Below, piece after piece: positions 3,366 through 64,000 of a stretch of 64,000 nt of DNA. The notes beneath the pieces are model-generated. The model made no database searches. It had not been told where the DNA came from and was given only the letters and a program-made list of their open reading frames with translations. Source of the DNA: Mobula hypostoma. Taxonomy: Eukaryota. Made by a program: the position numbers and the translations under genes. Within the stretch, counting starts at the first letter, position 1. Every line of letters starts with the position of its first letter. Where the stretch lies: assembly GCF_963921235.1 (NCBI RefSeq), contig NC_086097.1, forward strand, positions 6,014,001 through 6,078,000, read 5' to 3'.

Positions 3366-3580
3366 ACACAAGAGATTCTGCCGATGCGGGAGACCAAAGC
3401 AACACAGACAAAATACTGCAGGAACTCAGCAGGTCAGGCAGCATTTATGTTGGGAAGTAAACAGCCAGTGTTTTGGATTGAGACCCTTCAGACTGGAAAG
3501 GAAGGGGTTAGAAGCCAGAATAAGAAGATGGGGAGAGGGGGAGGAGTACAAGCTAGGGGGAAGGTGGGTAGGTGGGAGAG
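3366..3580 (-). mobile_element. Old Penelope-like pLTR fragment, hammerhead decayed
   Basis: GGAACTCAGCAGGTCAGGCAGCAT...GAGACCCTTCA is shared with the intact copies at 34578 and 63275; followed by a purine-rich tract. Confidence 0.65.
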
Positions 3581-25392: not shown

Positions 25393-27085
25393 ACCCGGCT
25401 TTAAAATATTTTGAATGGTTACGTTTTTCTTTGCTTCACAGAAGTCAGTAATCATTGACATGTACAAGATAGTGGGAGATGAAGACAAGCTAGAAGAAAG
25501 AGATTGGTTTTAAGGAACATTTAGAACAAGGAGAGATTTAGGGACTGATTTCCAGAGTTGCAAATAAGTTCCTCCAAGAGAACCACAAGCTTGTCATGGT
25601 TTGGAGTCTTGCCTGCCTCAATTCCCAAAGAGCTACATTGGCTGGAGTCAGGGTCCGAGCCAATCTGCACAGTTGCGGCATCACCTGTTTTCCCAAATAG
25701 CGGACCCCAATTTGTTGAGACCATTAGTCCCACTCAATCACTGGCCCGATCAGCCAGATCATCTACCTCATAATAGGCCTCCAGGCTATCCCAGACTTCC
25801 TAAGTCACTTCAGACACATAATACACAGAAAATGCCTTCAGGGCTTTTGGAGTGAAGGCAGATTTTGATAGATTCTTGATTGGTCAGGGTATGATGGGGT
25901 AAGGGAACAAGGCAGGAGACTGGGGCTGAGAGGAAAAATGGCTCAGCCATGAGGAAATGGCAGAGCAGATTCGATGCACCAAGCAACCTAATCTTGCTCC
26001 TGTATCTTATGCCCTTATGGTCTTAATGTTTTAGCTCCTGGTAAGATTACTCATGCCAAACAGGTCAAAGGGTAGAGGCCTGAACAAGAGTGGTCCACCA
26101 GTCCTCTGGGTTCAGGGGTTGAGCTTAGGGTTAGCAATCCTGATTGGTAAGGCAAAATTGTTATGAAAAAAGCCATGAAGATTCCTTCTACATCTGAGTG
26201 CAATAGTATTTTTGAATCTTCAGCTGGGACTTACATGACTAACAATAATGAAAACCAAGAGGAAGATATTGACATGATGAAGGAAGCCCTGAACACACCA
26301 AAGATGGAACAAGCTGCCAGTGTGGGTGATGGATGTGATTTCAATTTCAATGATTAAGAGAAATTTGGTTAGTTACATAGATGGGAGGGGTATGGACAGC
26401 CATGGTCTGGATGTAGTTTGATGGGACTGGGCAATTTAAATGGTTCAGCACAGACTAGATGGGCCAAAGCGCCCATTTCTGTGCTATGTTTTCTAAGACT
26501 CTATGGAGGACATTCATTGCTGTCGTAAATGCGAGAAGTGTAACAGGCAGTAAGCAAGGTAGCACTGTAAGTAAACAAGAAGTTGGAAGAACTCAGCAGG
26601 TCAGGCAGCATCTCAGATTGAGAGCTTCTTGATTATTGCTCCCAATTGCACCAACTGCAAACTTCTATGTCTCGAAATTCCAGAGTTTCTTGCCAGGGGA
26701 GCTAATTGGACAACCAGCCAAAGTGGACAATGGAAAATGGAACTGAATGTAATTTGAGTTCTCAAATCCTGCAGAAACCTTCAGAAGCACGGAAGAGTGG
26801 GGCATGGAAAGGTTTTGAAAACTGAGGAAATGCACAGTGAATAAACCTTGCATTTTATAATGCTCAGCCCAGGAATTGCCTATTGAAATCTTGGTACAAT
26901 TAATTTAGAAGAATTATAATTTCATCATTGGCCAAAGAGTGTCAGTCTTTCATATCTGTTCAATTTTATACAGCACATGATGTGAATGAGGAGAGCATGT
27001 GGAGATTTCAACAACAGATGAAATGTTCCCTTTTAAGCTTAGACATTTCTTTGAGCTTATACAGTTATGCTCATTTTTATTATTT

Positions 27086-33563: not shown

Positions 33564-34451
33564 TGTAGCCTGGGGAAAAGCACACACTCAGGACAACAAA
33601 GACTTTTTCGGGTTTTCATTCCTTTATCTGTTTTAGATGTTTTAGTGCCGGAAGAGGGTCTCAAAACGAAACGAACGAATTTACAACCAGTTCCTGCCAT
33701 TACAATCTCAGTTTAACTTTCAGTCTACACCCTTGTGTATCGACCAATTGTGTATGCAGAATAAAAATACATTAAGTAAACCACACAGAACTAATCCAGT
33801 AGTGGCAATTCTGAAGGAACACAATACAAACAACATTAGAATCCCACCAACCGTGTACCCTTATACATAGCAGCGAAAATGTAGGCAAATACATCTCATC
33901 TAAGACGTCTGCTCCCTTTTAGTACACATGTGCTTAACTTCCAAACAGAGACTAAACACTGTTACATTCACAATCAGTCATGATACAATAAAGTTAGACA
34001 AACGGTGCACTTTGGCACAACTTTAACAAGATATTGCCTGGTAGTTAAATTACAGGAAGACTGACTTACTTGGCCAGTAAGGAACTTTGCACAAGCCACA
34101 CTATCCAGCGCCAGTGCCTTCACTCGTGAAAATCTAAAGCATCCACATGTAAACCATGTCAAATTACCGATATTCTCATTCGCCAACAAGCATAAATGAA
34201 TTCACATGGATATCGTTAATTAATACTCACCGTTCCTCACCACGCCCAGTATCTCTGGGAGGAACTTAATCCCAAAGCCCCACCAGCTTCTTCTGCAGGA
34301 AACAAAAATGGTCTCCCCACCATCCCGTGCGTGCGCAATAACATCACCGTCTCCACTTAAAGGCACAGACAACTATTCTAGCATTACCCGGATGGATGCC
34401 TAAGTACACTTTTAACAATAATGAATAAGATTCGACGGTCACCCGGTTATA
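33564..34451 (-). repeat. 5' LTR
   Basis: TGTAGCCTGGGG...CACCCGGTTATA; roughly 90% identical to the 3' LTR by eye. Confidence 0.95.
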
Positions 34452-34630
34452 ATTAAATAAGATTTAATTTTTAAAACTTAATTCTGGTAGCTCAAGAATG
34501 CCAGTGGGTACAGGACACTCTGAGAGGAGAGGATGGGCAGCCAGAGGTTACGGTCCACATACCTCCCATACCTAATACTCACAACACGCTGGAGGAACTT
34601 AGCAGGTCGGGCAGCATCCATGGAAAAGAT

Positions 34631-34668
34631 CAGTCGACGTTTCGGGCCGGAACCCTTCATCAGGACTG
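34631..34668 (-). ncRNA. Minimal type-I hammerhead ribozyme motif
   Basis: CAGUC-CUGAUGA-A-GGGU(UCCG)GCCC-GAAACGUC-GACUG; stems I and II pair and the core is intact. Confidence 0.8.
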
Positions 34669-34694
34669 TATAGGGCCTCTGCCCCTTCCCTCTA

Positions 34695-34732
34695 CGGTCC
34701 TGACGAAAGGTTCCGGCCCGAAACGTCGACCG
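34695..34732 (+). ncRNA. Minimal type-I hammerhead ribozyme motif
   Basis: CGGUC-CUGACGA-AAGGU(UCCG)GCCC-GAAACGUC-GACCG; predicted cleavage after C34727; one stem II mismatch. Confidence 0.72.
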
Positions 34733-34824
34733 ATCTTTTCCACGGATGCTGCCTGACTTGCTGAGTTCCTCCAGCGTGTTGTGAGTGTTGCTTTGACCCC
34801 AGCATCTGCAGATTATTTTGTGTT

Positions 34825-35340
34825 CCCATACCCAATAAAATGGCCACTGACTGTATGTATGTGGTCTTCTGCTGTTGAAGCCTATCCACTTCATGATTCA
34901 ACATGTTGTGCATTCGGAAATGCTCTTCTGCAAACTACTGTTGTAACACATGGTTACTTGAGTTGCTCTCGTTTTCCTGTCAGCTTGAAATAATCTGGCC
35001 ATTCTCCGTCAACCTCTCTCATTAGCAAGGTGTCTTTGCCCATAGAACAGCTGCTCACTGGATGTTTTCACAAAATTCTCTGTAAATTCTTGAGACTGAT
35101 ATGTGTGAAAATCTTATGAGTTCAGCAGTTTCTGAGATACTCAAACCACCCTCTATGGTACCAACAATCATTCTGCAGTCAAAGTCACTTGTATTACATT
35201 TCTTCCCCTTTCTGATGTTTGGTCTGAAAAGCAGCTGAACCTTTTAAGCATGCCTGTGCTTTTCATGCTTTGAGTTGCTGCCACAGGATTCACTGATTAG
35301 AGATCTGCATTAATGAGCAGGTGTACTTAATAAAGCACTG
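34825..35340. mobile_element. Tc1-like non-autonomous element (host of the 34578 insertion)
   Basis: AATAAAATGGCCACTGA and GAGCAGGTGTAC.TAATAAAG Tc1-type terminal motifs; no intact ORF. Confidence 0.5.
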
Positions 35341-45589: not shown

Positions 45590-46457
45590 GTCATCATCAC
45601 AGTGTTTGAGTGAACATAAGGTGGTGATCTTAAGGCTTTAGTGCTTCAAGGCTTTAGTGAAGAGAGGCTTCACTGAGAAAAAATAAAGGAAAGAAAAGCT
45701 CTTCCTTCTGTTAGTCCTGACGAAGGGTCTCGGCCTGAAACATCGACTGCGCCTCTTCCTATAGATGCTGCTTGGCCTGCTGCGTTCACCAGCAACTTTG
45801 ATGTGTGTTGCTTGAATTTCCAGCATCTGCAGAATTCCTGTTGTTTGTGAAAGAAAAGCTCAAGCTTTTTCCTTCTCTTCTTTATATCTGCTCAGCTAGG
45901 ATAGTAGGGATGACAGGCAGGATAGTAAAATGCTCCTTTTGTGAGATGCAGGAAGGCAGGGAGACCTCCAGTGTCCCTGACGACCACAACTGTGAGAAGT
46001 GCATCCAGCTGCAGCTTCTAACAAACCATGTTAAGGAGTTGGAGCTGGAACCGGATGAACTCTGGATGATTTTGGAACTGAAGCAGTGATAGTTAGGACA
46101 TATAGAGAGGTAGCTCCCCACAGTGCCTCTGAGACTCAGAAGGTAAGTGGGGAGAAGGGGCACGCTGTGGTGATAGGGGATTTGTTAGTTAGGGGAACAG
46201 ACAAGAGGTTCGCAGAGATTCCTGAATGGTATGTTGCCTCCCGGGTGCCATGGTCTGGGATATCTCAGATTGAGTCCTCAGTATTCTTAAGTGGGAGGGT
46301 GAACAGCCAGAAGTCATGGTCAATGTAGGTACCAATGACATGGGTAGGACGAGTGATGAGGTTCTACATAGAAGCTCAGTGAGTTAGGTGTTAAGTTAAA
46401 GGGCAGGACCTCCAGGGTTGTGAACACAGGATTGTTACCTGTGCCATGTGCTGGTGA
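45590..46457 (+). mobile_element. CR1 5' region/ORF1 (zinc finger plus SGNH esterase) remnant
   Basis: CSFCEM..CEKCIQLQLL; VVIGDLLVRG; VGTND. Confidence 0.8.
45702..45846 (+). mobile_element. Penelope-type mini-retroposon (subfamily A, single arm) with hammerhead motif at 45713-45748
   Basis: AGTC-CTGACGA-AGGGTCTCGGCCT-GAAACATC-GACT; TSD GAAAGAAAAGCTC (45689-45701 / 45849-45861). Confidence 0.85.
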
Positions 46458-56727: not shown

Positions 56728-56862
56728 CACTCGCAACACGACAAACGGTTCCAGCCCGAAATGTCGACTGATCATTTCCACGGATGCTGCCTGACCTGCT
56801 GAGTTCCTCCAGCATGTTGTGAGTGCTGCTTTGACCCCAGCATCTGCAGATTATTTTGTGTT
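56728..56862 (+). mobile_element. Penelope-type mini-retroposon (subfamily B); hammerhead 5' half missing
   Basis: Short inverted 5' stub CACTCGCAACACG; body matches 34708-34823; flanks TAGATAGGCA / TAGATAGACA. Confidence 0.75.
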
Positions 56863-61052: not shown

Positions 61053-61920
61053 AATAACACTGCTCCGACAGCGTGCAGTGTAAAGTGAGTCTAAGGACGG
61101 AAGATTGGTTTGTGTGATGTGCTGCGCTTGTGTTCATGATCTTCTGCAGCTTCTTCTGGTCTTGGACAGGACAACTTCCATACTTCCTGAGAAAACTAAA
61201 GAAATTTGGCCTGTCTCCTCAAACCCTCACTAATTTTTATAGATGACAGTAGAAAGTATTTTCCTATGGTGCATCACAACCTGGTATGGAAGTTGTCCTG
61301 TCCAAGACTGGAAGAAGCTGCAGAAGATCGTGAACACAGCCCAGCACATCACACAAACCAATCTTCCATCCTTGGAAACAACAGGAATTCTGCAGATGCT
61401 GGAAATTCAAGCAACATACATCAAAGTTGCTGGTGAACGCAGCAGGCCAGGCAGCATCTATAGGAAGAGGCGCAGTCGACGTTTCAGGCCGAGACCCTTC
61501 GTCAGGACTTCCATCCTTGGACTCACTTTACACCGCACACTGTCAGAGCAGTGCTGCCAGGATAATCAAGGACACGACCCACCCAGCCAACACACTTTTT
61601 ATCCCTCTTCCCTCCGGGAGAAGGCTCAGGAGCTTAAAGACTCATACGGTCAGATTTGGGAACAGCTTCTTTCCAACTGTGATAAGACTGCTGAAAGGAT
61701 CCTGACCCGGATCTGGGCCGTACCCTCCAAATATCCGGACCTGCCTCTCGGTTTTTTTGCACTACGTTACTTTCCATTTTCTATTTTCTATTTATGATTT
61801 ATAATTTAAATTTTTAATATTTACTGTCGATTTGTACTCCAGGGAGGGGGAAGCGCAGAATCAAATATCACTATGATGATTGTACGTTCTAGTATCAATT
61901 GTTTGGTGACAATAAAGTAT
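61053..61920 (+). mobile_element. Rex1/Babar 3' fragment with an inverted duplicate at its 5' side
   Basis: VESI..CITTWYG, KKLQKIV, LPSGRRLRS, SFFP motifs; 61057-61183 is the reverse complement of the downstream segment. Confidence 0.8.
61376..61509 (-). mobile_element. Penelope-type mini-retroposon (subfamily A, single arm) with intact hammerhead motif at 61474-61509
   Basis: Minus strand AGUC-CUGACGA-AGGGUCUCGGCCU-GAAACGUC-GACU; TSD CTTCCATCCTTGGA (61363-61376 / 61508-61521). Confidence 0.88.
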
Positions 61921-63333
61921 AAATGGAGCTGGTGATCTGGTCAGAATTATGGAATCCTCAATGCAGATGTACAAGCAGATTCCTCTTGTAAGTTTTCATG
62001 TTTTATTGTTTTACAACATTGAATCACAGTGTGTTTAATTTGGCTAATTTGACACTGATCAACAGAAAAAGACTTCTGCATCAAAGTGAAAACCGATCTG
62101 TACAAAGTAATCTAAATTAATTACAAATATAAAACACAAATAATTGATTGCAGAAGTATTCACCCCCTTTAATATGACACACCAAATCATCACTGGTGCA
62201 GCCAACTGGTTTTTGAGGTCACATAATTAGTTAAATGAAGATCTATTTTTGGAAACCTGTGTGCAGTCAAGGTGTTTCAATTGATTGCAGTAAAAATACA
62301 CCTCTATCTGGAAGGTCCAACTGTTGTTAAGTCAGAACCCAAGCAAAAACTAAAAAAGAAGACAAAGGAACACTCCAAGCAACTCCATAAACAATACAAG
62401 TCAAGATATGGAAACAAGAAAATTTCCAAGTCACTGAATATCCCTTAGAGTACAGCTAAGTCAATCATCAAGAAACAGAAAGAATATGACACAGCTGTAA
62501 ATCTGCCTAGAGCAGACTGTCTTCAAAAACTGAATGACTGTGCAAGAAGGAGACTAGTGAGGGAGGCCACCCACCTATGACAACTCTGGAGGAGTGGCTG
62601 AGATGGGAGAGACTGCGCAGACAACGACTGTTGCCCAGGTGCTTCACCAGTCACAGCTTTATGAAGGAGTGGCAAAGAGAAAGCCATTGTTGAAAAAAAC
62701 TCACATTAAATCTTGGCTAGAGTTTGACAGAGTCATGTGGAGAACTCTGAAGTCAGCTGGAAGAAAGTTCTATGGTTTGCTGAAACCAAAACTGAGCTTT
62801 TTGGCCATCAGACCAAATGTTATGTTTGGTGTTAGCCAAAAACAGTACATCATCAAAAACACACCTTCCCTACAGTGAAGCACGGTGGTGGATGCATCAT
62901 ACTGTAGGGATGCTTCACTCCAGCAGGCCCTGGAAGGCTTATGAATGCAGCAAGATACAGGGAAATCCCGGAGGAAAACCTGAGGCAGTCTGCAAGAGAA
63001 CCGTGATTTGGGAGATTTGTTTTCCGGTAAGACTATGACCCCTAGCATAAAGCCAAAGCTACACAGAAATGGCTTAAACAGAACAAAGTTAATATCCTGG
63101 AGTGGCCAAGTCAGAGCCCAGACCTCAATCCAATTGAAAATTTGTGGCTGAACTTGAAAAAATTAGTTCACTTATGATCCTCATGCAATCTGACAGAGCA
63201 TGAGCAGTTTTGTAAGGAAGAATCGGGAAAAATTACAGTGTCCTGGTGTGCAAAGCCAACACAGACTCAAGGCTCACACATAAAAGTTGCTGGTGAACGC
63301 AGCAGGCCAGGCAGCATCTCTAGGAAGAGGTGC

Positions 63334-63369
63334 AGTCGACGTTTCAGGCCGAGACCCTTCGTCAGGACT
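63334..63369 (-). ncRNA. Minimal type-I hammerhead ribozyme motif (core intact)
   Basis: AGUC-CUGACGA-AGGGUCUCGGCCU-GAAACGUC-GACU. Confidence 0.78.
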
Positions 63370-63432
63370 AACTGAAGGAAGAGTGAGTAAGGGATTTGAA
63401 AGTGGGAGCACTTACTCACTCTTCCTTCAGTT

Positions 63433-63468
63433 AGTCCCGACGAAGGGTCTCGGCCTGAAACGTCGACT
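63433..63468 (+). ncRNA. Hammerhead motif with a core mutation (CCGACGA)
   Basis: Same as the opposite arm, but U4 to C at 63438. Confidence 0.6.
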
Positions 63469-64000
63469 GCACCTCTTCCTAGAGATGCTGCCTGGCCTGC
63501 TGCGTTCACCAGCAACTTTGATGTGTGTTGCTTGAATTTCCAGCATCTGCGGAATTCCTGTTGTTTACAGACTCAAGGCTGTAATTTCTGCCGATAGTGC
63601 ATCTATTAAATACTGACTAGAAGGGGGTGAATACTTATTCAAGCACTTATTTTGTGCTTTATATTTGTAATTAATTTAGGTCACTTTGTAAAGATCTGTT
63701 TTCACTTTGGCACTAAAGAGTCATTTTCTGTTGTCAAAGCACCAAATTAAATCCACTGTGAATTATTGTTATAAAACAATGAAACATGAAAACTTCTAAG
63801 AGGGTGAATATTTTTTATATACATATATATTAAATAAATATTTCATAAAAAGAACAAAATAAGAAAAAAATAGTGAGGGAACATGGGTTCATTGTCCATT
63901 CAGAAATCTGATGGCAGAGGGGAAGAGGCTGTTCCTGAAATGTTGAGTGTTTGTCTTCAGACTCCTTGACGGTAGAAATGGCACAAGGACATGTCCTGAG

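Follow-up and report, generated by a model that had tools for sequence, protein, structure and literature searches.

The sequence at 34578-34823 of the window (the 64,000-nt stretch of Mobula hypostoma contig NC_086097.1 analysed here) is very probably a dead-on-arrival insertion of an endonuclease-positive Penelope-like retroelement (PLE), belonging to subfamily B of a family that we call Y. It is a single 246-bp insertion with a 14-nt direct repeat on both sides (13/14 identical). An antisense arm is followed by a short centre and by a sense arm, which continues into a tail of 34-38 nt. The inverted arms, 34574-34675 and 34688-34789, are 102 nt each, are 90% complementary and leave a gap of 12 nt. 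The sense part represents the last 158 nt of the element, and the adjoining inverted copy comprises 88-98 nt without the tail. The features are, in order:

34564-34577, left target-site duplication (TSD) TCCCATACCTAATA, 14 nt, 13/14 identical to 34824-34837
34578-34665, minus strand, inverted tail-less 5'-truncated arm, antisense of the PLE 3' region, beginning at the inner 3' end
34631-34668, minus strand, left-arm minimal type-I hammerhead motif, its features agreeing with the minimal hammerhead (min-HHR) as described in PMC4209133
34666-34694, plus strand, natural upstream leader of subfamily B; the same leader follows an ordinary 3'-UTR in the non-fold-back copies L037 and L038
34695-34732, plus strand, right-arm hammerhead motif (stem I CGGUC/GACCG, box CUGACGA, GAAAC-GUC)
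34733-34789, plus strand, right arm downstream of its hammerhead; the conserved block GATGCTGCCTG is at 34745-34755
34790-34823, plus strand, 3' tail on one side only, 34 nt (38 nt when 34786 is taken as its start); the conserved block CCAGCATCTGC is at 34799-34809
34824-34837, right TSD TCCCATACCCAATA, pairing with 34564-34577

The minimal motif in each arm is CUGAYGA...GAAACGUC. Stem I has 5 bp and uses the five bases after GUC, and stem II has 4 bp with the loop UCCG. Matches to CTGAYGA-N-GAAAC are located at 34639-34663 (minus strand) and 34700-34724 (plus strand), within the insertion. The window contains five such motifs against 0.41 expected, and none of 100 shuffles reached five. Every core position is intact in the left-arm motif (stem I CAGUC/GACUG, box CUGAUGA, bulged A, stem II GGGU-UCCG-GCCC, GAAAC-GUC). 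In the right arm the predicted cleavage site is between 34727 and 34728; position 10.1 of stem II is A, not G (AAGGUU), and the A.C mismatch breaks the conserved G10.1-C11.1 pair. The tail-less arm matches unit positions 23-124 on the minus strand with 90% identity and ends where the tail of the other arm starts. The leader holds a short inverted repeat, CTGTATAGGG...CCCTCTACGG, the second half of which reaches 34697 and so overlaps the hammerhead part by 3 nt. The axis of the fold-back lies in the loop of this inverted repeat.

Related copies were found elsewhere in the window. The sister subfamily, A, has the stem II loop CUCG; the loop UCCG places 34578-34823 in subfamily B.

45702-45848, plus strand, subfamily A, single copy
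61377-61507, minus strand, subfamily A, single copy
63275-63566, subfamily A, fold-back
56730-56861, plus strand, old B-type fragment starting inside the hammerhead box, with an 11-bp TSD (10/11)
3366-3444 and 26575-26612, minus strand, old B-type short pieces, 81-87% identity

Five window copies have TSDs of 14 (13/14), 13, 14, 14 and 11 (10/11) bp, those of the subfamily A copies being 13-14 bp; for a sixth copy, an old fragment, no TSD was found. The description given in the initial annotation is therefore accurate. It had reported a second, sequence-distinct subfamily sharing its layout with the CUCG copies, inverted arms with a hammerhead motif in each, a tail of about 38 nt and a TSD of 13-14 bp, and all of these are seen here. 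The stretch 63100-63260 adjoins the subfamily A fold-back, which seems to be inserted into it; judged by eye, this stretch resembles a remnant of a Tc1/mariner-type transposase.

Copies of the family are very numerous. In the assembly of the same genome (3.48 Gb), a degenerate hammerhead pattern of 31 nt has 29,483 forward and 29,519 reverse exact matches, and its reversed control has none on either strand. We considered two sets of loci, namely 1.5 kb around each of the first 20 pattern matches, and 30 loci retrieved with the fold-back as the query, the latter set being biased toward fold-backs. Only three of the 20 loci sampled around pattern matches are fold-backs. Among the 100 pattern matches listed, motifs on opposite strands occur in pairs 39 to 722 nt apart, and no same-strand pair is closer than 1 kb.

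The natural copies of both subfamilies extend more than 1.2 kb upstream of the arms and have many different 5' start points. The order in family Y is the end of an open reading frame, a poorly conserved UTR of about 300 nt, the hammerhead, and about 130 nt to the 3' end. The last 88 residues of this frame match GIY-YIG weakly (Pfam E 0.014, short of the curated cut-off), and are 31% identical (E 6e-9) to residues 447-527 of a 528-amino-acid ORF with RVT_1 and GIY-YIG domains, taken from a second PLE family (X) of the same genome. The next upstream piece of the frame is colinear with residues 265-297 and 399-445 of the 528-residue ORF, including the cysteine-rich linker. In 11 of the loci sampled by pattern (L054-58, 60-63, 66, 70; 20 in all), endonuclease-coding sequence directly precedes the hammerhead. 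It is also present in the B-type loci L037, L038 and L028, where its amino acid identity to subfamily A is 65-79%. Since PLE coding sequence precedes the hammerhead, the arms are very probably the last 100-160 nt or so of a PLE. Endonuclease-positive PLEs have one ORF in which a PLE-type reverse transcriptase is followed by a GIY-YIG endonuclease at the C-terminus. Judged from the sequences, family Y is placed among the PLEs by its endonuclease end, the colinear linker and the insertion signature considered below.

The members of family X, the source of this comparison (L071-L075, L046, and L079+L087), contain open frames of 528-755 amino acids with RVT_1 and GIY-YIG domains. They form tandem arrays, the periods being about 2.8, 4.9, 5.6 and 6.4 kb. 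Full-length PLE copies are expected to have a pseudo-LTR or partial-tandem organisation, and among the sequences read tandem arrays were observed for family X only. Many of the arrays are situated within tens of kb of contig ends, and between their units are short CCCTAA/TTAGGG-like repeats and 3' fragments of family Y. Their appearance is that of subtelomeric PLE arrays, here in a vertebrate. One complete PLE unit was read, the family X unit of about 8 kb in the tandem L079+L087; it has no hammerhead-like motif under a relaxed descriptor (CUGANGA...GAAA with helix II, including the U3-A8 variant, on both strands) and no match to the A or B arms. An upstream ORF in this unit has a weak GDSL-lipase-like Pfam match (E 0.0047, below the cut-off). 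Subfamily A units beside truncated family X copies were considered as template-switch chimeras; at least the C18 case is a plain insertion with duplicated flanks, and others may be chimeric.

The layout of 34578-34823 is the published insertion signature of PLEs. According to PMC8557442, PLE insertions are heavily 5'-truncated, often have an inverted 5'-truncated copy at the 5' end, and may carry a tail of 30-40 bp, in many cases at just one end. This tail spans the interval between two internal start sites of reverse transcription (PMC11167929). Each of these traits is found in family Y. The copies are variably truncated at the 5' end; an adjacent inverted 5'-truncated copy is present in 34578-34823, in the subfamily A fold-back of the window and in the three fold-backs among the 20 sampled loci; and there are an optional one-end tail of 34-38 nt and TSDs of 11-14 bp, where PLEs are expected to have a variable length of around 10-15 bp. 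The copies have one of two 3' ends, separated by about 35 nt, one beyond the tail and the other immediately ahead of it. Ten single copies in the sample are tailed and nine are tail-less. The fold-backs follow a stricter rule. Exactly one arm is tailed in all five that were not selected by structure (L051, L052, L065 and the A and B fold-backs of the window), and the same holds for 21 of 21 B-type fold-backs in the query-biased set. In L065 the tail-less arm ends earlier than in other fold-backs. At L075:1086-1237 an antisense arm is followed directly by the sense tail, with almost no sense arm.

In the initial annotation the structure was called a palindromic hammerhead element that keeps the plan of the other subfamily. 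This part cannot be retained: the plan is the known signature of PLE integration, and copies extend into the GIY-YIG ORF.

The end points suggest the following course of events. Most likely the two target strands were cut by the PLE endonuclease at points about 14 bp apart, and reverse transcription of a PLE RNA would then have been primed at both 3'-OH ends. One cDNA would have started from the outer site and become tailed, the other from the inner site and remained without a tail. Both would have stopped early, and the antisense cDNAs would have been joined through the short inverted repeat just upstream of the hammerhead. A purified PLE protein does cleave and extend both target DNA strands in vitro (PMC11167929).

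The resulting structure may be compared with the products of L1 elements. In L1 twin priming, the 3'-OH of the second target strand also primes reverse transcription, which gives an inverted 5' part. There the inverted part comes from another, more 5' segment of the same RNA, whereas here both arms are the same 3'-terminal segment, with two defined start sites.

One possibility is that the insertion is indeed a PLE 3' fragment, but that a single cDNA snapped back on the natural inverted repeat and copied itself. The position of the axis, exactly in the loop of the 10-nt repeat, agrees with this, as a self-primed hairpin would give such a centre. However, self-copying predicts that both arms or neither should be tailed, and exactly one is tailed in every fold-back of the unbiased and the query-biased sets. 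Moreover, about half of the B fold-backs have the natural leader beside the tailed arm, and the rest have it beside the tail-less arm, so that in these the tailed arm cannot have been copied from it. This split, together with the one-tail rule, argues against a single self-copying cDNA. The inverted repeat itself (CTGTATAGGG...CCCTCTACAG), just upstream of the hammerhead, is a natural feature of subfamily B that is present in non-fold-back copies too, and the fold-backs of subfamily A, which have no such repeat, have scattered junctions. We consider self-copying improbable.

No difference between the strands in the start site of reverse transcription was reported in vitro (PMC11167929), and thus the strict one-tail rule has no explanation in published data. 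The joining of two separately primed cDNAs could be extended to meet it: the geometry might record a coordinated two-headed integration complex that uses the outer site on one strand and the inner site on the other. We offer this extension tentatively and think it rather unlikely to be correct. In subfamily B the arms often meet in the conserved 10-nt inverted repeat, and the small hairpin upstream of the hammerhead may be a joining device in such a complex. If true, the two-headed complex would go beyond the published in vitro result, in which the strands did not differ. The one-tail rule and the hairpin pivot are mildly new; the kind of element is already well described.

A different explanation is that the fold-backs constitute a short palindromic family, in which the whole plan of two arms, a ribozyme on each strand and a tail is a selected and propagating unit. 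Two subfamilies in one window share the layout, and many fold-backs of similar length are retrieved when a fold-back serves as the query. However, the junctions and centres of the fold-backs vary from copy to copy, which indicates that they were made individually at insertion rather than copied from a palindromic master. Fold-backs are also a small minority of the loci sampled by pattern, and single copies continue upstream into PLE coding sequence. The inverted duplication accounts for the "hammerhead on each strand". Since a hammerhead read in antisense is no ribozyme, a transcript would have one motif, locked in a long hairpin. This explanation is largely refuted, and we assign it a very low probability.

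Two independent head-to-head insertions, or a later local inverted duplication, have next to no probability: the family is very abundant and nested insertions do occur (for instance, a copy inside a family X element), but a single 14-bp TSD surrounds the whole structure without an inner TSD, and the one-tail geometry is repeated in every fold-back examined. Equally implausible is a MITE or foldback DNA transposon, a tRNA-type SINE or a tandem non-LTR retrozyme, despite the inverted arms, the TSD, the short length, the high copy number and the hammerhead motif, since the arms show homology to the 3' end of a retroelement that codes for protein, and the two ends differ, only one of them having the tail. 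The insertion lacks the symmetric terminal inverted repeats of a MITE, which extend to both ends; its tail of 34-38 nt is found at a single end. Head-to-tail tandem hammerhead repeats, as in non-LTR retrozymes, were not observed either: the window copies are single or inverted, and the matches listed contain no close same-strand pair. A SINE-like unit with a fixed 5' end (position 7 of the A unit; position 89 of the fold-back query) was at one stage a candidate; the apparent end is an artefact of fold-back queries and references, and the natural copies continue upstream.

The natural copies of a PLE 3' region allow the conservation of the hammerhead to be assessed. For six natural copies of A and four of B, we compared the majority state of each column, in bins of 20 columns. 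The agreement between the subfamilies is as follows:

Endonuclease-coding part, 13-19 of 20 columns per bin
300-nt UTR upstream of the hammerhead, 3-12 of 20 columns per bin (15-60%), with many gaps
Hammerhead, 33/40 columns
Post-hammerhead region, about 68%
Tail block, 15/20 columns

The hammerhead and the region where reverse transcription starts are thus islands of conservation, which supports selection in the source elements. The claim that CUGAYGA and GAAACGUC are conserved while their neighbours have diverged is borne out by the contrast between the hammerhead and the upstream UTR bins. Over 71 arms the core columns are mostly at least 90% conserved; the exceptions are N7 and G16.2, both of them in CpG dinucleotides. 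Outside the hammerhead, the blocks GATGCTGCCTG and CCAGCATCTGC are conserved between the subfamilies as well as the core is. The comparison supports the view that the hammerhead sequence is probably kept by selection in the RNA of source PLEs.

The block GATGCTG at 34745-34755 is complementary to the tail block CAGCATC at 34799-34809. The two pair in the centroid fold of a single arm and enclose the inner start site of reverse transcription. Their sequences do not differ between the subfamilies, so covariation has no bearing on this pairing. On this model, the stem-loop may be the start point of reverse transcription.

For selection on the fold, as distinct from the sequence, covariation gives no support. 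Stems I and II of 71 arms (62 distinct) have a covariation score of 0.136; the mean of the shuffles is 0.134, and 213 of 500 equal or exceed the observed value. The test is weak because it covers two close subfamilies only. In the same arms, 89.2% of the cells are paired, against a shuffled mean of 88.8%, and no pair of stem II changed on both sides in the 71 arms. Thus, of the proposal that the ribozyme fold is selected in the source elements, the conservation of sequence stands, and the covariation is at the level of the shuffles.

The initial annotation had also noted that stem I reads CAGUC/GACUG in one arm and CGGUC/GACCG in the other, so that pairing is preserved. The sequences were read correctly, but their compensatory value is weak: among the 62 distinct arms the stem I pair concerned is A-U in 40, G-C in three, G-U in two and unpaired in 17. 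In subfamily B, stem I is ACAGTC/GACTGA in 11 of 35 arms and ACAGTC/GACCGA in five; ACGGTC/GACCGA occurs once, and this is the right arm of 34578-34823. Five of the ten differences between the arms of the insertion, both stem I differences among them, are at CpG sites, so that independent CpG decay, added there as a caveat, is the better reading.

The pair 10.1-11.1 is G.U in 29, G-C in 28 and unpaired in five of the 62 distinct arms. A pattern barring G at the first position of stem II has 1,066 and 1,019 matches on the two strands of the same genome, against 66 and 65 for the control. Most of the 100 listed matches are mutated A or B copies, and the few others among them show no consistent second hammerhead family. 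Without such a family in the genome there is no independent lineage for a covariation test.

The motifs resemble the min-HHR of metazoan PLEs as they appear in PMC4209133. They are of type I, with the core CUGANGA / GAAA / UC and a helix I of 5 bp. The core nucleotides C3-A9, G12-A14, A15.1/U16.1 and C17 are present in both arms in type-I order. The left arm has all three further traits, namely the extra unpaired nucleotide between A9 and 10.1, the G10.1-C11.1 pair, and the palindromic C15.2-G16.2 without loop 3. Abundance is another likeness, in that such motifs are very numerous, mostly single and sometimes in opposite-strand pairs; the same source places minimal hammerheads in PLE terminal repeats and mentions opposite-strand pairs 100-700 bp apart. 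There are also two differences from what is described there. Helix II has 4 bp here, compared with 6-8 bp in several invertebrate families, and at 10.1-11.1 subfamily A has G.U in its majority form. The ORF of the anole Poseidon element begins within the hammerhead, whereas in family Y copies the hammerhead follows the stop codon at a distance of about 300 nt, a position expected of the downstream repeat.

A search of Rfam gave no match in the window at the gathering score, and no hammerhead family in 34400-35000 at E up to 10. The Rfam hammerhead families have the catalytic core in common with the motifs of the insertion; their models expect a closed helix III. The hits to mir-3127 (33.1 bits against a gathering score of 82), mir-4850 and sR53, obtained at E up to 10, were dismissed as artefacts of the hairpin shape.

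The fold of the whole copy has an energy of -186.9 kcal/mol (z -22.7). A single arm folds no better than its shuffles (z about 0), and its minimum-energy structure pairs core nucleotides. On these models a read-through transcript of the insertion would form a hairpin of about 100 bp, in which the one sense motif of either strand would be sequestered. Monomers of minimal PLE hammerheads show no activity, and weak cleavage is seen in dimers or when the PLE protein is present (PMC11167929 and PMC4209133). No function can be supported for the hammerhead of 34578-34823, the right-arm motif having lost the 10.1-11.1 pair. It is also conceivable, though rather unlikely, that read-through of fold-backs by host transcription yields perfect hairpins of about 100 bp, which could feed small-RNA silencing of the ribozyme and of the region where reverse transcription of the element starts.

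For annotation, it follows that short hairpin inserts bearing hammerheads in this genome are to be treated as truncated PLE insertions, and not as a new ribozyme element, a MITE or a microRNA-like hairpin. With about 59,000 exact pattern matches, the copies are a natural record of the start sites of PLE reverse transcription, about 35 nt apart, and of the joining of cDNA ends. Such a population can be used to test models of the integration cycle of PLEs, which is still poorly understood.

Other high-copy repeats lie just 3' of the insertion, at 34934-35014 and 35096-35338. In contigs of four runs, their summed word depth is 10 to 100 times that of the unique flanks; these contigs are short, nothing informative was bridged across the insertion, and they showed no empty site.

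Finally, in the centres of four B fold-backs (L024, L025, L028 and L032), stem I is immediately preceded by a partial second hammerhead that runs from stem II to GAAACGUC, pointing to template slippage or a short tandem duplication at the junction.
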